A stretch of 64,000 nt of DNA from Candidatus Portnoybacteria bacterium (GCA_028688325.1 JAQTYI010000001.1:31088-95087), one strand, 5' to 3'; shown: positions 8,770 through 62,310, numbered from the stretch's first letter. The notes: generated from the letters alone by a model not told the origin. Program-made: numbers and translations.

Positions 8770-8797
8770 AAAAAATTTAATAGTAAAATTGTATTTT

Positions 8798-8990
8798 CAA
8801 GCCGCCCATAGCGAAAAAATAATCAGAAAATCGAGATGAGCGAGTCGTTTAAAATCGCGTGCTATGGTGGGGCCCCAAGCGTCAGCTTGGGGCGTTGCGG
8901 ATAGCGATTTTAGATGAGCGAATCCGATTTTCTTTATTTTTTACGCTCGGGCGCGGTCTTTTGGCTACTTTTCTGCTGACAGAAAAGTAG
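8798..8990. repeat. About 200-bp structured intergenic repeat family, copy 1
   Basis: Shares ccgcccatagcgaaaa..aatcgagatgagcgag..cgtttaaaatcgc..ggggccccaagcgtcagcttggggcg..gcgattttagatgagcgaatccgatttt..ctacttttctgNNNNcagaaaagtag with the copies at 17907, 42311 and 49781, and more distantly with the copy at 62121. Confidence 0.75.
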
Positions 8991-9000
8991 CAAGATGATT

Positions 9001-10505: not shown

Positions 10506-10948
10506 GAAGTCCAAGCAAATCGGGCAATCGCCCTTCGCTACGCGAAGGGAGGAAAGTCCGAACTCTCTCTCCCTGCCACGGCGGGGTTAAAAAAGGTAGC
10601 GGCTAACAGCCGTCCATCGTAAGATGCGAGGTGCGAACAGTGACGATTTTATCCGAAAGGATAAAATCGCCCTCCGAAGCTTTACGCGTAGGAGGGCGCA
10701 ATTTGACCATAAGAAATTGCAAAATTTCCAAAGTCAAAATGAAACGGCAAAATCCTTACCGGGTGCAAGATCAAACTATGAGACCGCAAGCTTGGTTCTC
10801 ATAAGACAAGTAGATCGCCCGAGCCCCGCAGCAATGCGGGGCCCAGACAGATGATTGCCCATTCGCTCGTTGCATCGCCCAGGACTTGTCCTGAGCGAGC
10901 GCAGCGAGTCGAAGGACAAAATTCGGCTTATAGATTTGTTTGGACAAT
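10506..10948 (+). ncRNA. rnpB: RNase P RNA (bacterial type A-like)
   Basis: 5' GAAGUCCAAGC (P1); P3 hairpin cccttcgc-ta-cgcgaaggg; P4 5' strand AGGAAAGUCCGAAC; P4 3' strand ACAAAAUUCGGCUUAUA near the 3' end; the closing strand gatttgtttggac pairs with gtccaagcaaatc. A terminator hairpin follows at 10949-10980. Confidence 0.75.
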
Positions 10949-17906: not shown

Positions 17907-18136
17907 CCGCGCATACGAAAAACTTTAAGACAAAATCGAGATGAGCGAGGCGTTTAAAATCGCGTGCTGTGGCGGGGCCCCAAGCGTCAGCTTGGGGCGT
18001 TGTGCATAGCGATTTTAGATGAGCGAATCCGATTTTGTTAAAGTTTTATCGCCGCACGGGAACTCTTTTGCTACTTTTCTGGTTACAGAAAAGTAGATTA
18101 AATTATATTAACCTGGATTCCCGCTTTCGCGGGAAT
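17907..18136. repeat. About 200-bp structured intergenic repeat family, copy 2
   Basis: See copy 1. This copy adds a terminal hairpin attcccgc-tttc-gcgggaat. Confidence 0.75.
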
Positions 18137-18150
18137 GACAGCCGGAGATA

Positions 18151-22433: not shown

Positions 22434-22437
22434 ATTT

Positions 22438-22900
22438 TAACTACTAAATACTAATTTTTACGAATATACTAAAAATTATTTAATATTCAAAACTCTTTTA
22501 AATTTAACTCCAGTTTTTGAGAAGTGAGCAATAATTCCCAGCATCAAACCCTTGGCTTTTAAATAAGAATACAGCTGGCTAATATCTTTTTTAGAAAAAT
22601 AATCCCTGACTTTAATTTCTAAAACTATTTTGTCGTCGATCAAAAAATCGAAAAAATACTTTCCCACTATGCTCCCGCGATAGTTAATTTTTACCGGCAA
22701 TTGCTCAATAAAAACGATCCTTTCTCGTTCCAAATCTTTAGCTACTGCTCTTTGATAAAAAACTTCTTTGTGGTTGCTGCCAATATTGCTCCATACATTA
22801 AACAAAATACCCACAATCTTATAAGATAACTCCGGATATACCAAATCATCCCTTATCTTCACCATTTTGTATATTAGTACAAATTAGTATTTAGTAGTTA
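22438..22900. mobile_element. 463-bp cassette bounded by perfect 20-bp inverted repeats (TAACTACTAAATACTAATTT) that carries the GxxExxY gene
   Basis: The left TIR at 22438-22457 is the reverse complement of 22881-22900. The cassette fills the gap exactly between the fba start codon (22433) and the stop codon of the upstream 422-aa gene (22898-22900). Confidence 0.65.
22476..22865 (-). CDS. GxxExxY-family protein (PD-(D/E)XK-like)
   Basis: YPELSYKIVGILFNVW..G.....EVFYQRAVAKDLE..KINYRG matches the GxxExxY family pattern; 129 aa. Confidence 0.7.
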   Translation of the reverse strand: MVKIRDDLVYPELSYKIVGILFNVWSNIGSNHKEVFYQRAVAKDLERERIVFIEQLPVKINYRGSIVGKYFFDFLIDDKIVLEIKVRDYFSKKDISQLYSYLKAKGLMLGIIAHFSKTGVKFKRVLNIK

Positions 22901-24166
22901 CAACTCGATGAATCCTTTCTCAATATTGTTCAAAACTAATTCCCTCAACTTTTCCTCCCCCATAAATTCCATGAATATCTTATTCCACAGCGATTCCTGC
23001 TGGTGATAAAGATATTTTCCAAGACCCCCGTGGGTCAAGGCCACGATATTGTCTATCAGATCAAAGCTCACGATTTCTTCGCCTTTTTTACCGGCCAGGA
23101 ATATATCGCCGGCAAAATCATCGGCGCCACGCCAAAATTCCATATCGGCTTGCGGATATTTTTCCGCCAAAAGATCCATTTCTTTTTCCGCCCGCAGCCA
23201 ATGTAAATTCTCCGTGTTCACATGGGGCTCAAAAAGCCGCGGATCCTGAGGATCCGCCTTGGCCAAATATCTTTGGATAACTCTCCAAGATATTTTTCCG
23301 TCCTGCAAAGCGGCGCCCGATGCTTTGCCGGAAAGTAAATCCACAATGTTTTTTCCAAAGTCCGGCCGCTTTGCGTATCGCCTGAACAACTCGCAATAAA
23401 AATCGATTTCGTGAATATAGTGCAAGACCAAACTGAATGTTTCCGCGATCCGGCCGGGAGCGTAGACATGGACGCCGCCGTTCCCGTTAGAGGCCTCGGG
23501 GATGATAAAAACAAGGCCAAGCTCTTTCAAGTGGCTGATGTGATGAAGCTTTTTGCCGACAAATTTAGCGCCGATCTTCGCCCATTTTTCAGAAAGCACG
23601 CGCACTTTTATTTCCCTTTCTTCAAAATTATCCGCGGTTAAGTCATTATACGGCCTGAAAAATGTTTCGTTCAGCCAACGCTCGTTTTCCACAAAGCGCA
23701 AGGCGGCAAAAACTTCATACAAATTCTCCTTGGCCAGCATTTCTTGCACGCCGGCGTACCCTAAATCGCCCAAAATATTTTTGGGCGGATTCAAGAACAA
23801 AAAATCGCGCAGTTTTTCTTCTTGCAAAAAAAATCCGTTTTTTACGCCAGAAATTTCCTTTATCTTGCCTATCATGACTCCGCAGCCGTCCTGCTTGCTC
23901 AGATCCGGCTCGCCCAAAAATTCATAGAATGCCTTGTCGGCTTCTTTGGTTTTTTCAAAAAGCTTCGCCTGCACCAATTGAGCATCGGCTTTTTCTTCCG
24001 CTATGCCGAGTTCCTTTAATTTTTGCTTGACTATAGCTTCGTTCTCCTTGCAAATTTTTTCGGCCACGCCGGTTGTGCCGGTCAATTTTTCCATTTTGGC
24101 GAAAATCTCGGCCAAAACGCTTTCGGGCGAACGCAATAATGCGGCGATTTTTTGGACTGGTGTCAT
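22898..24166 (-). CDS. Hypothetical protein (422 aa), no family recognised
   Basis: Long uninterrupted ORF between the mobile cassette and the sugar-kinase gene. Confidence 0.5.
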   Translation of the reverse strand: MTPVQKIAALLRSPESVLAEIFAKMEKLTGTTGVAEKICKENEAIVKQKLKELGIAEEKADAQLVQAKLFEKTKEADKAFYEFLGEPDLSKQDGCGVMIGKIKEISGVKNGFFLQEEKLRDFLFLNPPKNILGDLGYAGVQEMLAKENLYEVFAALRFVENERWLNETFFRPYNDLTADNFEEREIKVRVLSEKWAKIGAKFVGKKLHHISHLKELGLVFIIPEASNGNGGVHVYAPGRIAETFSLVLHYIHEIDFYCELFRRYAKRPDFGKNIVDLLSGKASGAALQDGKISWRVIQRYLAKADPQDPRLFEPHVNTENLHWLRAEKEMDLLAEKYPQADMEFWRGADDFAGDIFLAGKKGEEIVSFDLIDNIVALTHGGLGKYLYHQQESLWNKIFMEFMGEEKLRELVLNNIEKGFIEL

Positions 24167-30340: not shown

Positions 30341-30380
30341 CTCTCCCCTCTTTTCGTAAAGAGGGGTTGGGGGGGAGATT
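30341..30380. repeat. Poly-G/poly-C palindromic element (intergenic copy of the family inserted in miaB/gatB/gatA/miaA)
   Basis: ctctcccctcttttcgtaaagaggggttgggggggagatt. Confidence 0.5.
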
Positions 30381-34996: not shown

Positions 34997-35728
34997 TTAG
35001 CCATCAAAAGATTCTTTTTTACAAGGCACGAAACTCCGCCGATGTATGGAGCAGGCGCCGTATTGTCCGATGGCCGCCATATGCGCTCGCGTGCCATAGC
35101 CCTTATGAGAATCAAAGCCGTATTGCGGAAATTTGGCATGATATTTTAACATCAGCCGGTCGCGCGTGACTTTGGCGATAATGGAGGCCGCGGCGCAAGA
35201 CCAGATCTTTTCGTCTCCGCGAGTTACGGCTTTTTGGCTGACAGACAGGTCTTCCAATAAAAAATTGCCGTCCAGCAGGAGATAATCCGGCTCCCCTTTC
35301 AAGTCAACCAGCGCCCGCTTCATCGCCAGCTTTGTCGCTTCCAGAATATTTATCCGGTCGATTATTTTTTCCGAAACGATGCCGATGCCATATTTTATAT
35401 CGGGGCTGGCGGCCAAGATTTCAAACCACCTTTCTCGCTGATTGGCGGAAAGCTTTTTAGAATCGCGGATTTGAAGCCGCTTTTCTGTCCTTCTCGCGCC
35501 ACGCCCCTCGGTAGCCATGGGCGAAGGAGGGAAAGCGGGACTCCAGGGCCTGGATCCCGGGTCAAGCCCGGGATGACAAATCAGGACCGCCGCAGCAACC
35601 ACCGGTCCGGCCAGCGGCCCGCGGCCGACCTCGTCCAGGCCGACCACAAAATCATAGCCCTGCCGCCAAAGCTTTTGCTCATAACTGAAATCCGGATTTA
35701 TGGATTTTTGCTCTGCCAGTATTATCAT
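34997..35728 (-). CDS. rnhB: Ribonuclease HII carrying an in-frame insert of about 30 aa encoded by a palindromic repeat
   Basis: GLDEVGRGPLAGPVVAAAV...DSKKLS are RNase HII motifs. The extra CHPGLDPGSRPWSPAFPPSPMATEGRGARR maps onto the repeat ccagggcctggatcccgggtcaagcccgggatgacaa at 35530-35577. Confidence 0.85.
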   Translation of the reverse strand: MIILAEQKSINPDFSYEQKLWRQGYDFVVGLDEVGRGPLAGPVVAAAVLICHPGLDPGSRPWSPAFPPSPMATEGRGARRTEKRLQIRDSKKLSANQRERWFEILAASPDIKYGIGIVSEKIIDRINILEATKLAMKRALVDLKGEPDYLLLDGNFLLEDLSVSQKAVTRGDEKIWSCAAASIIAKVTRDRLMLKYHAKFPQYGFDSHKGYGTRAHMAAIGQYGACSIHRRSFVPCKKESFDG

Positions 35729-42310: not shown

Positions 42311-42587
42311 CAAGCCGCCCATAGCGAAAATGGGGGTTGTTCTGCCGCGCATACGAAAAACTTTAAGACAAAATCGAGATGAGCGAGGCGTTTAAAATCG
42401 CGTGCTGTGGCGGGGCCCCAAGCGTCAGCTTGGGGCGTTGTGCATAGCGATTTTAGATGAGCGAATCCGATTTTGTTAAAGTTTTATCGCCGCGCGGGAA
42501 CTCTTTTGCTACTTTTCTGGTTACAGAAAAGTAGATTAAATTATATTAACCTGGATTCCCGCCCCGCATTTGATGCGGGGCGGGAAT
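42311..42587. repeat. About 200-bp structured intergenic repeat family, copy 3 (extended)
   Basis: Nearly identical to copy 2. The terminal hairpin is lengthened to attcccgccccgca-tttga-tgcggggcgggaat, with pairing preserved. Confidence 0.75.
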
Positions 42588-42600
42588 AACAATATATACG

Positions 42601-44103
42601 ATGAATCTCCTTAAAAAATCCTGGCCGTTCATATTCCTGACAGCTTTATCGCTCATAATCCACTTCTCCTTTTTAAGCTACCCCAGCCAGGTGGTTTTTG
42701 ACGAGGTGCATTTTGGCAAGTTCGCGGCCGCCTATTCCACGGGCCAGTATTATTTTGACATCCATCCGCCGCTTGGCAAACTGATGATAGCGGGTTTTAC
42801 AAAATTGGCCGGCATTGATCCGGTTTTTGATTTTAACAACATCGGCGAGAATATGCCCGCCGGCACTCTTTTTGCCATGAGATTTCTGCCCGCGCTTTTT
42901 GGCGCACTTTTTGTTTTGGCCTTTAGCTGGTTGGCGTGGCTCGCAACTCGCGACAAAAAAATCGCCCTACTGGCCGGTTTTTTGATATTGCTGGATAACG
43001 CTTTTTTAGTGCAATCAAAATTCATTCTGGTGGATATTTTTATGCTGTTTTTTGAAGTTTTAACGCTCTGTTTTTTCTTCCTGTGGCAAAGGCAAAAAAG
43101 CTTTGGCGCAAAATGGTTTTCATATTTATTCTTGACCGCAATATTTTTCGGACTGACAATTTCCATTAAATGGACAGGGTTGGCGACTATCGGCATCATT
43201 GGCGTTATTTTGTTTATAAAAATATTTAGCAAAAAAATATCTATCTACTTAAGTCATCCTGAACCGCCAGTGGGCGGTGAAGGATCTTTAATAGATTCTT
43301 CGGCCTCGACGGAGTTTATGCTGAGTGAAACGAATGTGCTCGGCCTCAGAATGACAAAATTAAACTTGCTCAAAGAATGGCTGGTTGGTTTTTCTGCTAT
43401 CATACTTATCGGTTTCCTCGTATACCTCATCCCCTTCTATATCCACTTCGACCTTCTCCCCAACTCCGGCCCGGGCGATGCTTTTATGAGCCCGCAATTC
43501 CGGCAGGAACTGCAATACGGCCGCGCCAATGTTTATCAGCCGCTGCCCTTTTGGCAAAAATTTACAGAGCTCAATAAAACCATGTATACGGCCAGTACCA
43601 ACCTGACCACCGAGCATCCTTTTGGCAGCAAGTGGTATAGTTGGCCGCTGAATAGCAAGCCCGTCTATTATTGGAATAGGGATGAAATTGCGAGCCGCCC
43701 CGACTGGCAAGCCAAGATATTTTTTTCCGGCAACCCTGCAATCTGGCTCATAGCGGCCATAGGCATAATTTTCGTTCTAATAAAACTAGCAACCAAAAAA
43801 GGTCGGCGCGATTTCGGTCCGTTTTTTTTTATTTTATTGATAGCTTATTTTGCCAATCTCCTGCCGTTCATTTTTATTAAACGGGTGGCGTTTCTATACC
43901 ACTATCTGCCCCCGGCGATTTATGCCAATTTTATTTTGACTCTGCTCCTGGCTAAGCTCTGGCCGAAAGAAAAAAACTTTTTTACCGCGGCTATAATTTT
44001 TGTTATTCTCGGATTCATCCTGCTCTCGCCGCTTTCTTACGGCTGGCCGATGCCGCCAAAACTCGATTGGGCGGAAACAAACTTCATCGGTCTTTTTCAT
44101 TAA
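42601..44103 (+). CDS. GT39/PMT-family (ArnT-like) membrane glycosyltransferase with an in-frame insert of about 35 aa encoded by a palindromic repeat
   Basis: The FDEVHFGKFAAAY PMT motif and many TM helices. The extra SHPEPPVGGEGSLIDSSASTEFMLSETNVLGLRMTKL maps to the gtcatcctga...cagaatgacaaa repeat at 43253-43356. Confidence 0.7.
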   Translation: MNLLKKSWPFIFLTALSLIIHFSFLSYPSQVVFDEVHFGKFAAAYSTGQYYFDIHPPLGKLMIAGFTKLAGIDPVFDFNNIGENMPAGTLFAMRFLPALFGALFVLAFSWLAWLATRDKKIALLAGFLILLDNAFLVQSKFILVDIFMLFFEVLTLCFFFLWQRQKSFGAKWFSYLFLTAIFFGLTISIKWTGLATIGIIGVILFIKIFSKKISIYLSHPEPPVGGEGSLIDSSASTEFMLSETNVLGLRMTKLNLLKEWLVGFSAIILIGFLVYLIPFYIHFDLLPNSGPGDAFMSPQFRQELQYGRANVYQPLPFWQKFTELNKTMYTASTNLTTEHPFGSKWYSWPLNSKPVYYWNRDEIASRPDWQAKIFFSGNPAIWLIAAIGIIFVLIKLATKKGRRDFGPFFFILLIAYFANLLPFIFIKRVAFLYHYLPPAIYANFILTLLLAKLWPKEKNFFTAAIIFVILGFILLSPLSYGWPMPPKLDWAETNFIGLFH

Positions 44104-44696: not shown

Positions 44697-46022
44697 ATGA
44701 ACTATTTTACCATTACCTATGGCTGTCAAATGAATAGGTCCGACAGCGAGAAAATCACGACCCGCCTCCGTAAAATGGGTCACCAACCGGCCAAAAACGC
44801 GGCTCTGGCCGAATTAATAGTGGTTAATCTTTGTTCGGTCAGAGAAAGCGCCGTCCATCGCGCGCTGGACCAGATACATAAACTATCTGATGGTCGAAAA
44901 AAAATAATCGCGGCCGGATGCATTCTGCCGCAAGACAGAAAAAAGCTGGCTGCCAAAAATATCGCTATCTGGCACCCGGATGATTATTTTTCGCAAGTCC
45001 CCCTGCGGGAAAGCGAATTCAGCGTGTTCGTGCCGATAATGACCGGCTGCAACAACTTCTGTTCTTATTGCGCCGTGCCCTTCACGCGGGGCAGAGAAAA
45101 ATCACGCCCCGCCAAAGAAATAATCGCCGAAATAAAAAAACTGCTCAAAAACGGAGCTAAAGAGATAATTTTGCTTGGGCAGAATGTGAATTCTTATAAA
45201 GATACCGCCGAAACATTTAATCCCCCCACCCCCCTTTTGCGTAAGGGGGGCGAAAAACCCGTATCTGCCTCCCTTGTAAAAAGGGGGGCGGGGGGATTAA
45301 AAAATACCTCGATCGACTTTCCGGCCCTATTAATAATAATCAACGCCCTCTCCGGCAACTTCCGCCTTTCCTTCATCACTTCCCATCCCAAAGATATGTC
45401 GGATAAGCTGATTGAAACGATGGCCAAGTGTAAAAAAATTATTCCTTATTTGCATTTGCCCGTTCAAAGCGGCGACGACAAGATCTTGCGGGCTATGAAC
45501 AGACATTATAGTGTCGCGCATTATAAAAATTTGATAAAAAAGATCCACTCCTCCTTTGCCCGCTGGCGGGCTTCGGAGGACAAGCCGCCCTTTTCTCCCA
45601 TAGCCATCTCCACCGACATAATTGTTGGCTTTCCCGGCGAAACTGCTAAACAATTTCAAAACACGCTAAAACTGATAAAGAATGTTAATTTTGATATGAT
45701 ATATTTTGCCCGGTATTCTCCGCGATCCGGCACCGCGGCCGCCAAATTAAAAGACAATGTTTCGCCGAAAGAAAAAAGACGCCGGGCGCAAGTGATAAAT
45801 TCCCTGCTAAAAAAACAGGCACTGGAGTTGAATAAAAAATATATCGGGCAAGAAGTCGAGATACTGGTGGAAAAAGTCGACGCGAACTGGGCCCGGGGAA
45901 AAACTTCAACTAACAAGGAAGTGATGTTGCCGCGAAAAAAATTGAAGATAGGACAATTTACAACGGTAAAAATAACCGAAGCCGCCGCTTGGCATTTGAA
46001 GGGATTAGAAAAGCCGCGCTAA
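44697..46022 (+). CDS. miaB: MiaB/RimO-family radical-SAM methylthiotransferase (likely tRNA i6A37 methylthiotransferase) with an in-frame insert of about 25 aa
   Basis: N-terminal MTTase domain (YGCQMN), radical-SAM CNNFCSYC, TRAM domain. The insert TFNPPTPLLRKGGEKPVSASLVKRGAGGLK is encoded by the poly-G/C palindrome at 45218-45300. Confidence 0.85.
   Translation: MNYFTITYGCQMNRSDSEKITTRLRKMGHQPAKNAALAELIVVNLCSVRESAVHRALDQIHKLSDGRKKIIAAGCILPQDRKKLAAKNIAIWHPDDYFSQVPLRESEFSVFVPIMTGCNNFCSYCAVPFTRGREKSRPAKEIIAEIKKLLKNGAKEIILLGQNVNSYKDTAETFNPPTPLLRKGGEKPVSASLVKRGAGGLKNTSIDFPALLIIINALSGNFRLSFITSHPKDMSDKLIETMAKCKKIIPYLHLPVQSGDDKILRAMNRHYSVAHYKNLIKKIHSSFARWRASEDKPPFSPIAISTDIIVGFPGETAKQFQNTLKLIKNVNFDMIYFARYSPRSGTAAAKLKDNVSPKEKRRRAQVINSLLKKQALELNKKYIGQEVEILVEKVDANWARGKTSTNKEVMLPRKKLKIGQFTTVKITEAAAWHLKGLEKPR
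45218..45300. repeat. Poly-G/poly-C palindromic element inserted in frame in miaB
   Basis: aatccccccaccccccttttgcgtaaggggggcgaaaaacccgtatctgcctcccttgtaaaaaggggggcggggggatt. Confidence 0.7.
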
Positions 46023-46204
46023 CATTAAGTCAGCCGGCCATCTAATATACATGTATTCTGACCTTGCTTGAGCGGCGCGAATTTTGGCGTGCCGCCTTTG
46101 CCGGCCGTAAATAAAACGCGTTTTCCGCACAAAAGAACTATAACAACAAAAAAGTGCCGTTTTCGGCGCCTTTTATACACTCATTTTAACTTTTTACCGA
46201 ACCT

Positions 46205-47224
46205 ATGTCAAAGCCAACTTATCCCCAAAAACCGATAATCGTCGTGGTCGGCCCCACGGCCTCGGGAAAATCCGACTTAGCAGTTAAGCTCGCTAAAAAA
46301 TTCAACGGCGAGGTTATTTCGGCCGATTCGCGCCAGGTTTACAAAGGCATGGATATCGGCACGGGAAAGGTGCCTCTCTCAAGTCCCCCCCTTGCGCAAA
46401 GGGGGGCCAGGGGGGTTAAACCTGCTGGCTACTACGGCGGCATTGCACATTATTTAATCGATGTGGCCTCGCCAAGCCGCCGATTTACCGCCGGGCAATA
46501 CAAAAAACTGGGGCAAGCAGCAATAAAAAAGATACAAGACAAAAACAAGATTCCCATCGTTTGCGGCGGCACCGGATTTTATATCCGCATGCTTGTGGAC
46601 GATCTGCAAGTTCCGGCCGTCAAGCCGGACTTAAAACTGCGCGCCAAATTGGAGAAAAAGACAACACAAGAACTATTCGCCGAGCTTAAAAAACTGGATC
46701 CGCGCCGCGCCGCGGAAATCGACCGCGCCAATCCCCGTCGGCTCGTTAGGGCGCTGGAGATAATTTATCTAACTGGCAAACCCGTGCCGCCGCCCCCCCC
46801 CTCTGTCATTCCGGGCTTGACCCGGAATCCAGAACCTGGATCCCGCATCAAGTGCGGGATGACAAATAATAATGTATTGTTCCTCGGCATCCGCCTCCCC
46901 CGACCCAAACTCGCCAAACGCATCAAAGCGCGCCTGGCTAAACGCCTTAAACAAGGAATGCTCGCCGAAGTCAAAAAACTCCGCGCGCAGGGCGTTTCCT
47001 GGAAACGACTGGACAGCTTCGGCCTGGAGTACCGCTGGCTGGCGAAATTTTTGCAAAACAAAATCTCCTATGAGGAGATGGTTGAGCGCCTGCAAAAAGA
47101 TATAGAACATTATGCCAAACGGCAGATGACCTGGTTTGGCCGCGATGAACGGATTCGCTGGATAAAAAATTCTGCGCAAGCGGAAAAATTTATGGCCAAA
47201 TTCTTGAAAAAATCAGCTCTCTAG
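46205..47224 (+). CDS. miaA: tRNA dimethylallyltransferase with two in-frame repeat-derived inserts
   Basis: P-loop GPTASGKS, and SADSRQVYKGMDIGTGK. Insert 1 at about 46384-46420 is LSSPPLAQRGARGVKPA (poly-G/C family). Insert 2 at about 46790-46866 is PPPPPSVIPGLTRNPEPGSRIKCGMTNN (gtcattcc...gggatgac family). Confidence 0.85.
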   Translation: MSKPTYPQKPIIVVVGPTASGKSDLAVKLAKKFNGEVISADSRQVYKGMDIGTGKVPLSSPPLAQRGARGVKPAGYYGGIAHYLIDVASPSRRFTAGQYKKLGQAAIKKIQDKNKIPIVCGGTGFYIRMLVDDLQVPAVKPDLKLRAKLEKKTTQELFAELKKLDPRRAAEIDRANPRRLVRALEIIYLTGKPVPPPPPSVIPGLTRNPEPGSRIKCGMTNNNVLFLGIRLPRPKLAKRIKARLAKRLKQGMLAEVKKLRAQGVSWKRLDSFGLEYRWLAKFLQNKISYEEMVERLQKDIEHYAKRQMTWFGRDERIRWIKNSAQAEKFMAKFLKKSAL

Positions 47225-48772
47225 TTTTTTCTTCAACATCCCAACCACCACCTGAGGATTGGCCTTGCCCTTCGTGGCGGCCATGACTTTGCCGACAAGA
47301 AACATCAGCGAGTTTTGCTTGCCTTTTTTAAAGTCCGCCACCGGGCCGGGGTTGGCGCTTAAAACTTCTTCGATTGCCAGATTCAGCTCTTCCTCATCGC
47401 TCACCTGGCCCAAGTCCTTTTCGGCAATGACATGCGAGGGATCCGCTCCCGTGGCGAACATTTCCGCCAGCACCGTTTGCGCGCCGGAAGATGAAACCAC
47501 GCCTTGCGCTGTCAGTTTGATGAACTCGGCGAATTTGGCCGGTGTGATTTTTACGGCGGAAAAATCATTGCCCGACTGATAAACCAGCCGCTGGAGCTCC
47601 GTAATCAAATAGTTCACCGCCAGTTTTGCCGATTTGGCATAGTCAATTTTCGGCTCGGCCATTTTAGCCAAAGCCGCCAATTCGCTGGCCGTTTTTTCAA
47701 AATAATTTCCCAGATCGAAATTAACGACTAAAACATCGATATCTCCGGCCGACAAACCGTATTCTTTGGCGAATCTCTCCCTTTTTTGCGCCGGCAATTC
47801 CGGAAGCTCTTTTTTCAATTCCTCGCTCAAGATCACCAACCCCTTTAGCGGCGGCAGATCCGGCTCGGGAAAATAGCGGTAATCATGCGCCTCTTCTTTC
47901 GCGCGCTGACTGAATGTCTCGCCTGTTGCATCATCCCAACCGCGCGTTTCCTGAATTATCTTTTCGCCCGCTTCCAACGCCTCGGTTTGCCTTTTTATCT
48001 CATAGTCAATCGCCCGCTCAACTACTCGAAAAGAGTTTAGATTTTTTATCTCTACCTTCGTCCCTAATTTCTTTAACCCTCCTGCTTCCCCCTTTACAAG
48101 GGGGGCAGATACGGGTTTATCTCCCCCCTTACGCAAAAGGGGGGTTGGGGGGTTAAAGTCCACGGGCCGTATACTAATATTGACTTCGCACCTCATCTGC
48201 CCTCGCTCCATATCCGCATCGGAAATTCCCAAATATCTAAAAATTAATTGCAACTCCTGGCAAAATTTGCGTGCCTGAGCGCCGGATTTTATATCGGGCT
48301 CTGTTACCAATTCCATCAACGGCACGCCGGCGCGGTTTAAATCCACAAGCGAATAGTCAGCTCCCTTGGGATGCGTTAATTTGCCGGTGTCCTCCTCAAG
48401 ATGTATCCGGGTTATCCTGACGCGGGCTTTTTCATCGTTTTCTCCGATATCCAAATACCCGCCTTCAATTAGCGGCTGGTCGTATTGTGAGATCTGGTAA
48501 CCCTTAGGCAAATCGGGGTAAAAGTAGTTCTTGCGGTCGAACTTGGATGTGTCGCCGATCTGGCCTCCCAGGGCCAATCCCGCCTTTAGAACCATATGCA
48601 CCGCTTCCTCGTTGATGACAGGCAAGGTTCCGGGCTGGCCGGAGCAGACGGGGCAGATATCAACATTGGGCTCGGTTTCAAGGCCCAGCCCGTTGGGACA
48701 AGAACAAAACATCTTGCTCTTGGTTTTCAGCTCGGCGTGGATTTCCAGGCCTATAGTCGGTTCGTATTTCAT
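47213..48772 (-). CDS. gatB: Asp-tRNA(Asn)/Glu-tRNA(Gln) amidotransferase subunit B with an in-frame insert of about 25 aa
   Basis: Starts MKYEPTIGLEIHAEL and has GatB/YqeY domains. The insert DFNPPTPLLRKGGDKPVSAPLVKGEAGGLK is encoded by the element at 48073-48156. The track start (MNITEFLLPGM) lies inside MITE 1b. Confidence 0.9.
   Translation of the reverse strand: MKYEPTIGLEIHAELKTKSKMFCSCPNGLGLETEPNVDICPVCSGQPGTLPVINEEAVHMVLKAGLALGGQIGDTSKFDRKNYFYPDLPKGYQISQYDQPLIEGGYLDIGENDEKARVRITRIHLEEDTGKLTHPKGADYSLVDLNRAGVPLMELVTEPDIKSGAQARKFCQELQLIFRYLGISDADMERGQMRCEVNISIRPVDFNPPTPLLRKGGDKPVSAPLVKGEAGGLKKLGTKVEIKNLNSFRVVERAIDYEIKRQTEALEAGEKIIQETRGWDDATGETFSQRAKEEAHDYRYFPEPDLPPLKGLVILSEELKKELPELPAQKRERFAKEYGLSAGDIDVLVVNFDLGNYFEKTASELAALAKMAEPKIDYAKSAKLAVNYLITELQRLVYQSGNDFSAVKITPAKFAEFIKLTAQGVVSSSGAQTVLAEMFATGADPSHVIAEKDLGQVSDEEELNLAIEEVLSANPGPVADFKKGKQNSLMFLVGKVMAATKGKANPQVVVGMLKKKLES
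48073..48156. repeat. Poly-G/poly-C palindromic element inserted in frame in gatB
   Basis: The reverse complement is nearly identical to the miaB copy (ttaaccccccaaccccccttttgcgtaaggggggagataaacccgtatctgccccccttgtaaagggggaagcaggagggttaa). Confidence 0.7.
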
Positions 48773-48903
48773 ACCAGGTAGTAGAAATTCGGTTATATTC
48801 ATAAATCCATACGGATTTTTAAATTGCCGAATTCTATAGTTTTATCAAATTTTGCCAATTAGTGATAGTTAACTAAACTGCCGAATTTTCACTACCTGGC
48901 ATA
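48770..48903. mobile_element. MITE copy 1b with 20-bp TIRs, flush against the gatB start codon
   Basis: cataCCAGGTAGTAGAAATT ... AATTTTCACTACCTGGcat; the interior is about 80% identical to copy 1a; ATA flanks. Confidence 0.65.
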
Positions 48904-49780: not shown

Positions 49781-49973
49781 CCCCACCCATAGCGAAAAAA
49801 TAATCAGAAAATCGAGGCGAGTTGAGCGTCTAAATTTGCGTGCTGTGGTGGGGCCCCGACCGTCAGGTCGGGGCGTTGCGGATAGCAAATTTAGCGAGAC
49901 GAGCCAGATTTTCTTTATTTTTTACGCTCGGGCGCAGGTCTTTTGGCTACTTTTCTGCCTGCCAGAAAAGTAG
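49781..49973. repeat. About 200-bp structured intergenic repeat family, copy 4
   Basis: The central hairpin is ccccgacc-gtca-ggtcgggg here versus ccccaagc-gtca-gcttgggg in copies 1-3: compensatory changes with pairing preserved. The distal hairpin is ctacttttctg-cctgc-cagaaaagtag. Confidence 0.75.
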
Positions 49974-49985
49974 CGAGGAAAAAAA

Positions 49986-56477: not shown

Positions 56478-56534
56478 ATTCGTATTTTTTTGTTTTTTAA
56501 AACCCCCTCGCGGGGGTTAAAGTATCTATGCTGT

Positions 56535-60655: not shown

Positions 60656-62113
60656 TTAGAATCGCATTGCGTCTTCAATGGTTTGAGCAACCCGAAAAAT
60701 CAAGTCCTCCGAAAAATGCGGGCCGATTATTTGCAGACCGACGGGTAATTTTCCGATCTTGCCGCAAGGCATTGATAGGGCCGGCACACCGGCCAAATTC
60801 ACCGGCACGGTGTAGATATCGGATAGATACATCGTCACGGGGTCGTTGATCTTCTCGCCTATTTTAAAAGCGGTCGTTGGCGCCACCGGCGTCATTATCA
60901 AGTCAACTCCGGCAAACGCCTTTTTAAAGTCATCGGCGATCCTGGTGCGCACTTTTTGCGCGCGCAGATAATAAGCGTCGTAGTAACCGGAAGACAAAGA
61001 ATAAGTTCCCAGCATAATGCGCCGGCGCGCCTCCGCACCCAAATACTGGCCGCGACTTTGCAAATAGACATCCAGTAAGCCGCTAAGCGCTGATTGCTTA
61101 TCGCTAATCGCGGATGTGCCGTATTTTATCCCGTCAAAACGCGCGAGATTCGCCGAGACCTCCGAAGCCATAATAATATAATAACAGGCCAAGGCATACT
61201 CGGAATAAGGCAAACTTATTTCCACGATTTTAGCCCCAAGCGCGGTCAATTTGCCGATGGCGGCGCTTACCAGTTTTTCCACCTCCTTATTAAGGCCTTT
61301 GGCAAAATATTCTTTGGGGATCCCAATTTTCAAATTATTAACCCCCTTTAATCCCCCCTTTAAAAGGGGGGCTGGGGGGTTAGCGCTGGTCGCGTCGCGC
61401 GTATCTTTTCCTTTTATAGCGTCAAACACCATCTTGCAATCGGCCACATTCTTGGCTAACGGCCCTATCTGATCCAAAGAAGAAGCCATCGCCATAACGC
61501 CATAGCGCGACACCGCGCCGTAAGTCGGTTTAAATCCGACAACTCCGCAAAAAGAAGCGGGCTGGCGGATGGAACCGCCGGTGTCCGAGCCCAAAGAAAA
61601 AACGCATTCATCCGCCGCCACGGCCGCGGCCGAACCGCCCGAAGAGCCGCCGGGCACCCGCTCTAAGTCGTTGGGATTTTTAGTCGCCCCGTATGCCGAG
61701 TTCTCCGTGGAAGAGCCCATGGCGAATTCATCCATATTGGTCTTGCCTAAAAATATCACGCCCGCCGATTTTAATTTCCTGATGACCGTGGCGTCGTAGG
61801 GCGCCACATAATTGGCCAATATTTTGGAAGCTGCGATGCATTTTTCTCCTTCAACCAAAATATTATCTTTGATGGCGCAGGGCACGCCTTCAAGCGGCCC
61901 GATTTTCAAACCGGCGGCAATTTTTTCATCGACTTTTTCGGCTTGTTCAAGCGCCAGCTTTTCCGTCGTCGACAAATAAGCATGGACTTTGGCGTCCTCT
62001 TTTTTTATATATGACAAAAACCCCTTCACCAATGCCTTGGCGGTGAATTCCTTATTTTTAAGCCCATTGTGGACTTGGGAGATTGTCAGATTTTTTAATT
62101 CCATGGAGTTCAA
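60656..62113 (-). CDS. gatA: Asp-tRNA(Asn)/Glu-tRNA(Gln) amidotransferase subunit A
   Basis: Amidase signature (GGSSGGSAAAVA) and Ser-cisSer-Lys triad. The segment TSANPPAPLLKGGLKGVNN is encoded by a poly-G/C palindrome at 61338-61384. Confidence 0.9.
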   Translation of the reverse strand: MNSMELKNLTISQVHNGLKNKEFTAKALVKGFLSYIKKEDAKVHAYLSTTEKLALEQAEKVDEKIAAGLKIGPLEGVPCAIKDNILVEGEKCIAASKILANYVAPYDATVIRKLKSAGVIFLGKTNMDEFAMGSSTENSAYGATKNPNDLERVPGGSSGGSAAAVAADECVFSLGSDTGGSIRQPASFCGVVGFKPTYGAVSRYGVMAMASSLDQIGPLAKNVADCKMVFDAIKGKDTRDATSANPPAPLLKGGLKGVNNLKIGIPKEYFAKGLNKEVEKLVSAAIGKLTALGAKIVEISLPYSEYALACYYIIMASEVSANLARFDGIKYGTSAISDKQSALSGLLDVYLQSRGQYLGAEARRRIMLGTYSLSSGYYDAYYLRAQKVRTRIADDFKKAFAGVDLIMTPVAPTTAFKIGEKINDPVTMYLSDIYTVPVNLAGVPALSMPCGKIGKLPVGLQIIGPHFSEDLIFRVAQTIEDAMRF

Positions 62114-62120
62114 GTTTGCA

Positions 62121-62310
62121 AACCGCCCATACGAAAAATTTTGTTATAAATTCGCGATGAGCCGAGCGTCTAAAATCGCCGGCGGGACGAGAAAGCGAAA
62201 CGAGTTGTTCGCGGTGATTTTAGCGAGGCGAATTCGAATTTGTCAAAATTTTATCGTCAGGCGGCGGTTTTTCCGCCGCTTTGGCGTTTACCCCGTTCTA
62301 CGGGGCCGGC
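62121..62310. repeat. About 200-bp structured intergenic repeat family, copy 5 (divergent)
   Basis: Shares the 5' box aaccgcccatacgaaaa..gcgatgagc..gcgtctaaaatcgc and a two-hairpin 3' architecture (gcggcgg-ttttt-ccgccgc; ccccg-ttcta-cgggg), but with different stem sequences. Confidence 0.55.

Follow-up and report, generated by a model that had tools for sequence, protein, structure and literature searches.

Background

How can the same palindrome come to lie inside two conserved genes of a small genome without breaking either reading frame? This question is raised by a 64,000-nt stretch of Candidatus Portnoybacteria DNA (GCA_028688325.1, JAQTYI010000001.1:31088-95087; hereafter the window), in which a hairpin-forming element built around runs of C and G, the C6/G6 element, occurs within miaB and gatB. 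An original prediction, made from the sequence alone, described these two insertions, listed related copies in miaA, gatA and two intergenic places, and likened the element to the Rickettsia palindromic elements (RPEs). The genome is that of a bacterium of the Candidate Phyla Radiation (CPR), as had been supposed, and the MiaB of the window is 100% identical to a protein encoded by a 788,852-bp contig (JAQTTM010000001.1) of a metagenome-assembled genome (MAG; GCA_028710785.1). In this study, the anatomy, distribution, protein context and evolution of the element were investigated. We conclude that it is most probably a selfish repeat, similar to a doublet of repetitive extragenic palindromic sequences (REPs) forming a hairpin (REPIN) or to a transposable element of the miniature inverted-repeat type (MITE), which survives where it is in frame in a permissive loop.

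Results

An element shared by miaB and gatB

Both copies lie within long open reading frames (ORFs) that run through the element without a stop codon, and the gatB copy has the same orientation and frame relative to its gene as the miaB copy (Table 1). Over 89 nt the copies agree at 85%, a match that takes in the non-palindromic spacer AAACCCGTATCTGCC, and as placed in the window (45216-45304 and 48069-48157) they form its longest inverted pair, 89 nt long and 85% complementary. A 22-mer core, CCCCCCTTTTGCGTAAGGGGGG, has three matches in the window at no more than three mismatches and none in 100 dinucleotide-preserving shuffles, the chance expectation being 0. The open frames, the identity and the empty shuffles bear out the claim of one palindrome in frame in both genes, and the insert peptides quoted in the original prediction are exactly the translations given in Table 1.

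The element is 84-89 nt long. In it, two hairpin units in inverted orientation, each about 32 nt, flank a spacer of 17-19 nt (CGAAAAACCCGTATCTG and AGATAAACCCGTATCTG in the two long copies). A unit has the general form TAAY-C6-N-C6-TTTnnnnAA-G6. The left unit reads TAAY-C6-N-C6-TTTTGCGTAA-G6, and the right unit is its imperfect reverse complement, CCYCCC-TTGTAAA(AA)-G5-6-N-G6-RTTA. The miaB copy (TAAT-C6-A-C6-TTTTGCGTAA-G6 ... G6-C-G6-ATTA) thereby fits the hairpin pattern found across phyla and described below. The ends are TTTAAT or TTTAAC before C6 and ATTAAA or GTTAAA after G6, the terminal inverted repeats are 16-18 nt long, and the doublets have no ORF of their own. In the gatB copy of the window, decay has affected part of the outer right arm (GGGGGAAGCAGGAGGG), three G's having been lost relative to the copy of its relative L001. 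As single-stranded DNA, each doublet folds into one long hairpin, at -31.4 and -24.9 kcal/mol; compared with shuffled sequences, the z-scores are -5.6 and -4.7, and the RNA of the miaB insert folds at about -59 kcal/mol.

The element can be read as a Pro/Gly-rich peptide in one forward frame because runs of C or G cannot form stop codons. Of the three forward frames, one is stop-free, and this is the frame used in both copies; read in reverse, the element has two open frames. Predicted tryptic peptides of the inserts and their junctions include GGEKPVSASLVK and DTAETFNPPTPLLR. Searching Rfam with the element returned no family, only sub-threshold chance matches to miRNA families. A concatenated 87-aa query of insert peptides found nothing at E <= 1 among 3262 candidates, and an insert-peptide profile run against 1.84 billion representative proteins gave two weak matches, both translated repeat arrays; such peptide searches are uninformative, since the insert peptide is too short and of low complexity.

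Presence and absence among relatives

The relatives compared are L001/L002 (96% GatB identity to the window), L249 (87%) and L003/L004 (78%), together with the more distant lineages L247 (GCA_018827895.1) and L248 (JGI 3300025317), and L250. The gene order SHMT-FolD-GatB-MiaA-MiaB-Gmad2-PMT-ThrRS-DnaE is kept in relatives. In the window, gatB and miaA overlap at their 3' ends; in L001, a 179-aa ORF without a Pfam match (L001:4289-4828), absent from the window, lies between them.

The gatB doublet is present in the window and in L001/L002, where 7 of 87 nt differ, and absent from L249, L003/L004, L248 and L250. A single unit in miaA occurs in the window, L001 and L248 and is lacking in L003 and L250. 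The miaB doublet of the window is absent from L001 and L003: L003 has no insert there (SYQDQKIDF), and in L001 the codon at which the window has its doublet is occupied by an insert that is palindromic but unrelated (RAERDTNSSSEALAKADG). Orthologues free of inserts have short loops at these sites (GatB ...SISEKGAKKL..., MiaB ...SYKDKN...), as had been claimed, with 3-8 residues (about 6-10 in the original prediction). Absence at 78-87% GatB identity and variation among close relatives show that the inserts are derived and polymorphic. A metagenome scan with the exact 22-mer, in a collection that does not hold the source genome, matched one contig only, already among the loci compared.

In the L001 insert in miaB (L001:7240-7310, minus strand, in the codons after QNVNSY), the first hairpin perfectly repeats the native flanking codons in inverted form, GAATTCGTATCGCGC-AGA-GCGCGATACGAATTC. 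This arrangement suggests that its family arose by fold-back or template switching.

Doublets of the C6/G6 element also occupy the same MiaB site in L247 and L248, with different, shorter spacers. The miaB doublet of the window is 85% identical to both the gatB doublet of the window and that of L001, 75-80% to the miaB doublet of L247 and 56-60% to that of L248; the two gatB doublets are 92% identical to each other, and the L001 gatB doublet is 82-88% identical to the L247 miaB doublet. The doublets therefore cluster by subfamily, defined by the shared spacer, and not by genomic position, a pattern to be expected if a common source was copied by transposition or gene conversion, and not if there had been one ancestral insertion in MiaB. 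The same segment in distant lineages had been named as a sign that it is ancestral. In other Portnoybacteria-like lineages the MiaB site does hold related inserts, but they are a mosaic on the tree and resemble one another by subfamily; judged by these comparisons, the shared inserts do not establish the insert as ancestral in MiaB.

At the gatB site, comparison with the nearest insert-free relative, L249, indicates that 15 native nt (SEKGA) are replaced by 99 nt (RPVD plus the element). TTAA or CTAA stands at both ends of the doublets; this flank is not separable from an extension of the terminal repeats because TTAA/CTAA is itself palindromic.

Insertion loops and their reuse

The miaB insertion falls in the loop between GQNVNSY and IDFPxLL, and the gatB insertion in the hairpin loop between RCEVNISI and GTKVEIKNLNSF. 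On solved structures, the GatB insert maps between residues 205 and 213 of Thermotoga GatB (3AL0_B) and the MiaB insert between residues 221 and 229 of Bacteroides MiaB (7MJZ_A), each a 7-residue loop. In the AlphaFold2 model of GatB, with a mean predicted local distance difference test (pLDDT) score of 83, insert residues 209-235 are coil with pLDDT <50 between strands 193-203 and 240-245. In the model of MiaB (mean pLDDT 85), insert residues 177-202 are likewise coil with pLDDT <50, between strand 156-160 and helix 208-216. Both inserts are thus predicted to be disordered loops between conserved secondary-structure elements.

The same loops vary widely in length across Parcubacteria. At least 8 extra residues are found at the insert loop in 35 of 121 GatB proteins (the next most variable site, 8) and in 60 of 120 MiaB proteins (the next site, 17). 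The gatB and miaB loops are therefore insertion hot spots across Parcubacteria. The segments at these loops belong to several unrelated repeat-derived peptide families, for example NPPxPL...GG (the C6/G6 element), SSLR..AKQSR..VHEIAS..PRND, DRNSSSEALAKxD, TDYGL and REIADKRGIGTRND. On a MiaB tree built with the loop left out, three of the hot-spot families alternate between sister lineages.

Selection on the inserts

Nonsynonymous (pN) and synonymous (pS) differences per site were compared between the window and L001. The gatB insert has pN 0.071 and pS 0.107 (pN/pS about 0.66), and the rest of the gene pN 0.025 and pS 0.434 (pN/pS about 0.06); the insert peptide is therefore much less constrained than the enzyme. 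For the single unit in miaA, pN is 0.084 and pS 0.495, against 0.082 and 0.459 in the rest of that gene. The synonymous conservation of the gatB insert was considered as a striking feature and set aside, since 8% of equal-sized windows elsewhere in gatB are as conserved or more so. The gatB insert would seem to be a slowly decaying passenger, and its sequence gives a weak hint of nucleic-acid constraint or recent homogenisation.

Shorter copies of the element

Single units of the element accompany the doublets. The unit in miaA, one of the copies originally proposed, is confirmed as a single unit and adds about 16 aa relative to a relative without it. The gatA copy is also a genuine unit, but not a net insertion: it lines up gap-free with the linker that GatA of Aquifex and of Pseudomonas has natively, so that no length is gained. 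The intergenic copy at 30341 is plausible as a degenerate unit. The other proposed intergenic copy, at 56497, proved to be a hairpin with a 5-bp stem only, just upstream of secE; its relationship to the element is not demonstrable and it is not counted.

Of the 14 strong units in the Portnoybacteria-like loci, 13 are located within long ORFs, and every one of these is read through. The register CCC-CTT (Pro-Leu) is common to all 13, though other registers are often open; these units represent about six events and are not independent.

A C6/G6 hairpin family across phyla

A degenerate pattern, C6-N1-3-C6-TTT-N4-7-G6, was matched in viral contigs at at least 120 loci of 34-72% GC. AAAT precedes the outer C run in 83 of 119 units (70%) and AAT in 102 of 119, though the flank was left unspecified in the pattern. 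The family was defined as AAT and an outer C6, 1-3 nt, an inner C6, TT(T)-loop-(A)AA, G6 and an optional closing G6-ATT. In reference genomes, the matches listed for a related pattern include Nitrospirota, Nitrospinota, Deltaproteobacteria, Cyanobacteria, Planctomycetes, Aminicenantes and one Patescibacteria MAG. A 45-nt form, AAT CCC CCC nnn CCC CCC TTT nnn AAA GGG GGG nnn GGG GGG ATT, reads N-P-P-x-P-P-F-x-K-G-G-x-G-G-I in either orientation. The searched literature holds no description of the C6/G6 family or of such elements in Patescibacteria.

The coding context depends on base composition. The longest open frame through the element was tried as a measure on the viral loci and rejected as uninformative, 95% of random positions also lying in open frames of at least 100 codons. 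The criterion used was at least 80 open codons on both sides, stratified by GC. Among the matches listed, 51% of the 87 units at genome loci below 50% GC pass, against 49% of random positions; at loci of 50% GC or more, 5% of 41 units pass, against 52% of random positions, and almost all lie outside genes.

The host enzymes inspected are real, with the inserts in Pfam domains or linkers: a CopA-type ATPase (VMIVAI[NPPSPPLIKGGEGGL]LGFIAVADTLK), chorismate synthase (AroC, with two inserts), MetRS and NAD synthetase (NadE). At loci L195, L219, L174, L184, L127, L202 and L215, from Nitrospirota, Nitrospinota and others, the in-frame hosts include these enzymes, MetRS with two inserts, as well as CbiG/CobJ and a Nuo-like subunit.

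Other palindromes and repeats in the window

In-frame palindromes of other families occur in MiaA and the PMT glycosyltransferase, within about 21 kb of synteny with L003, and in RNase HII elsewhere in the window (Table 1). The segment GTCATYCCGGGCTTGACCCGGRATCCAG... is common to the miaA and RNase HII palindromes. In L001, the miaA palindrome of the second family contains a further nested 33-nt insert. As many as three separate inserts derived from repeats are found in MiaA of L248 (L248:4494-5690) and L250 (L250:1841-2953); the second of the MiaA sites holds several tandem C6/G6 units (NPPQLSFTKRGGVPPFRKGRLGGIYSPPLGGVRGDF...) in these lineages, where the window has a different family. The original emphasis on four translation-related enzymes as the targets is not meaningful, because hosts are diverse both in the window, where PMT, RNase HII and the second MiaA site carry other palindromes, and in other phyla, where CopA, chorismate synthase, MetRS and NadE carry the same family.

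Larger repeats were also observed. Two copies of an intergenic repeat family of 150-230 nt are 98-100% identical; the repeat is bracketed by CCGCGC...GCGCGG, is MITE-like and has no match in Rfam at the gathering threshold. A small PD-(D/E)XK (PDDEXK_3) gene flanked by inverted repeats (22435-22903) looks like a compact mobile cassette. The class A RNase P RNA (10512-10946) is 435 nt long against a 367-position model and scores 109 bits against a gathering score of 100; by analogy with the RPE-bearing RNase P RNA of Rickettsia, it may carry insertions.

Table 1 Positions of the element, its host genes and other repeats in the window
Feature	Coordinates	Strand	Details
miaB, radical-SAM methylthiotransferase	44697-46022	+	441 aa; Pfam UPF0004 + Radical_SAM + TRAM
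Full doublet in miaB	45216-45304	+	Read as FNPPTPLLRKGGEKPVSASLVKRGAGGLK
miaB doublet, left unit	~45219-45250	+	AATCCCCCCACCCCCCTTTTGCGTAAGGGGGG
miaB doublet, spacer	~45251-45267	+	
miaB doublet, inverted right unit	~45268-45299	+	
gatB	47213-48802 (likely start 48772)	-	529 aa; Pfam GatB_N + GatB_Yqey
Full doublet in gatB	48069-48157	-	Read as FNPPTPLLRKGGDKPVSAPLVKGEAGGLK
miaA	46205-47224	+	Pfam IPPT; one C6/G6 unit plus a second-family palindrome
Single hairpin unit in miaA	46385-46420	+	CCCCCCCTTGCGCAAAGGGGGGCCAGGGGGGTTAAA; read as PPLAQRGARGVK
gatA	60656-62113	-	Identified by match to solved GatA structures
Single hairpin unit in gatA	61338-61384	-	Read as ANPPAPLLKGGLKGVNN
Degenerate intergenic unit	30341-30380	+	CTCCCCTCTTTTCGTAAAGAGGGGTTGGGGGGGAGATT; plausible member
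Units scored for register	45229-45250, 46385-46406, 48088-48144, 61353-61371		Others in L001, L247 and L248
Second-family palindrome in miaA	46793-46870		GTCATTCCGGGCTTGACCCGGAATCCAG...CCTGGATCCCGCATCAAGTGCGGGATGACA; in frame
Palindrome in PMT glycosyltransferase	43264-43341		...STEFMLSETNVL; in frame
Palindrome in RNase HII	35534-35600		GTCATYCCGGGCTTGACCCGGRATCCAG...; in frame
Intergenic repeat family, 150-230 nt	8796-8991, 17907-18141, 42345-42562, 49786-49974, 62123-62179		4-5 copies
PDDEXK_3 gene	22476-22865		Flanked by 39-nt inverted repeats, 90% complementary (22435-22473, 22865-22903)

Discussion

Origin of the inserts

We consider it likely that the element is a selfish repeat of REPIN or MITE type, persisting where it happens to be in frame in a permissive loop. 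It would be a small, non-autonomous palindromic repeat, built like a REPIN or like a MITE whose terminal inverted repeats measure 16-18 nt. From a common source, copies of one subfamily would have been pasted into different genes of the Portnoybacteria lineage by transposition or gene conversion. An insertion would survive selection only in an open frame and in a loop tolerating extra residues; translation would then presumably lengthen the loop by a disordered stretch of about 28 residues, and slow decay would follow. Copies can persist in essential genes because their length is a multiple of three, they are nearly stop-free and the loops are permissive. The mechanism of mobility, the translation of the inserts and their near-neutrality are what we infer from these patterns.

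A parent insertion sequence with matching ends was looked for: none lies in the window, and an ORF bracketed by the termini of the element was sought in 240 loci, where only ordinary genes with two separate inserts were recovered. Several results weigh against our reading. The scanned ORFs of the window, which covers 64 kb from a contig of 789 kb or more, encode no transposase or RAYT Pfam domain. Neither a clean empty-site junction nor a clean target-site duplication was found, native nucleotides being replaced at gatB and no length being gained at gatA, and a search of 30 complete palindromes of the general C6/G6 family for a variable target-site duplication found none. Moreover, pS in the gatB insert is below that of the rest of the gene, which could indicate nucleic-acid constraint.

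This last point belongs to an improbable alternative, in which the hairpin is a functional nucleic-acid element, such as a REP-like topology or recombination site, a site affecting mRNA stability, an RNase III site or a pause site; the peptide would then be incidental. Its genic location would follow from a compact genome (about 85% coding) with little intergenic space. The hairpins are very stable both as DNA and, in miaB, as RNA; RNase III is encoded in the window; and the sequence is conserved across phyla, with AAAT-C6 in 70% of the unbiased viral matches. The low pS is nevertheless unexceptional against the control windows, the miaA unit has the same pS as its gene, and the outer stem of the gatB copy in the window has decayed relative to L001. 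Close relatives, furthermore, either lack the elements or have unrelated palindromes at the same sites.

About equally improbable is that the palindromes were made or spread locally without a transposase, by template switching or fold-back replication and gene conversion at quasi-palindromic sites. The failure to find a target-site duplication, the replacement rather than simple interruption of native residues, and the inverted copy of the native flank in the L001 miaB insert are all in its favour, and clustering by subfamily is as expected under gene conversion. Against it, the two genes share a non-palindromic spacer and arms at 85% identity, which requires copying from a common template, though a mechanism of the conversion type is compatible with this.

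It is very unlikely that the inserts are selected Pro/Gly-rich flexible loop modules adapting MiaB, GatB and MiaA in episymbiotic bacteria, for example to new interactions. The same loops are occupied repeatedly in many lineages, and the frame is kept even after internal indels (PLCVRG against PLLRKGG), as this explanation would have it. The pN/pS of the gatB insert, about 0.66 against about 0.06 in the rest of the gene, points the other way, as do the unrelated peptides hosted by sister lineages in the same loops, the many relatives with none, the predicted disorder and the intergenic position of the same DNA element in GC-rich genomes. An assembly or binning artefact, raised in the original prediction and conceivable for error-prone G/C homopolymer runs, can practically be dismissed, since three assemblies made independently (NCBI GCA_028710785.1, ENA ERZ27247363 and JGI 3300029288) contain the copy in gatB, the frames are intact and related copies occur in further MAGs.

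Returning to the selfish repeat, a broader and more doubtful proposal concerns its origin. The element of the window could be a local branch of pan-bacterial 'codon-symmetric' C6/G6 palindromes, moved by a hairpin-specific process that leaves no target duplication and entering coding DNA as freely as non-coding DNA in low-GC lineages (CPR, Nitrospirota and Nitrospinota); the few permissive loops of each protein would then serve as landing pads reused by unrelated families. If this tentative proposal is true, palindrome insertion is a major route of loop-length evolution in the housekeeping proteins of CPR bacteria.

The sharing of loops across Parcubacteria and the turnover of families imply that, in reduced genomes generally, loop insertions may still be supplied by selfish hairpin repeats. 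Such insertion accounts for many odd Pro/Gly-rich segments of low confidence in CPR proteins, which trouble annotation, alignment, phylogenomics and structure prediction. A hairpin family that spans phyla and has no Rfam entry is also a definite starting point in the search for a new mechanism of mobilisation.

Comparison with known systems

In-frame palindromes were first thought to be a peculiarity of Rickettsia and were later recognised as intragenic REPs in a few species; the present case extends them to an ultra-small Patescibacteria genome. RPEs are palindromic repeats of 105-150 nt in Rickettsia, with families RPE-1 to RPE-10 (Ogata et al. 2000, 2002, as summarised in PMC10969869 and PMC2229807), and the RPE insert of guanylate kinase is reported to bring no benefit or a slight cost in enzyme assays (PMC2229807). 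A CGTC tag is present in RPE-4 and RPE-6 (PMC3733652). The Portnoybacteria element shares with RPEs its terminal inverted repeats, its in-frame position in conserved housekeeping genes of a reduced-genome, host-dependent bacterium, its conserved peptide, its placement in loops and some intergenic copies. The proposed resemblance therefore holds as a functional analogy (palindromic, in frame, in loops, derived) but not as family membership: the element is shorter (84-89 nt), has a core of G/C runs and no CGTC or GTAG tag, and resides in a Patescibacteria host, a separation made by description and not by direct alignment with RPEs. Unlike RPEs, which are confined to one genus, the C6/G6 family spans many phyla, and its insertion loops are reused by unrelated families with turnover between sister lineages.

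Intragenic REPs tagged with GTAG or CGTC have been described in Opitutus terrae, Xanthomonas, Stenotrophomonas and others; frequently they are dimers of inverted repeats that code for 20-30 amino acids (Di Nocera et al. 2013, PMC3733652), and they lie occasionally at the same site in related species (PMC3733652). The present element is likewise a short stem-loop repeat occurring as an inverted dimer within known genes; it differs in lacking the GTAG/CGTC tag, no RAYT gene was found in the window, and almost all strong Portnoybacteria units are intragenic, as against a minority of REPs. REPINs lie outside genes and are associated with a RAYT gene (Bertels and Rainey 2011, PMC3116915). They resemble the element in being doublets of inverted REP-like units with a short spacer that form one long hairpin, single units also being present; the Portnoybacteria copies, in contrast, are intragenic (13 of 14 strong units), again with no RAYT found in the scanned ORFs of the window.

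Bacterial MITEs with open frames fused to genes include the 107-bp Correia element, ERIC and QMITE1 of Coxiella (PMC2229807, PMC5896051); MITEs of this type are A+T-rich, with TA termini and target-site duplications (PMC2229807, PMC5896051). Terminal inverted repeats, small size, the lack of coding capacity of their own and occasional in-frame fusion are common to these MITEs and the Portnoybacteria element, which differs in its G/C-rich core and in that no target-site duplication was found. What this study adds to the known systems is the recognition of hot-spot loops, of turnover among several families within them and of a hairpin family that crosses phyla.

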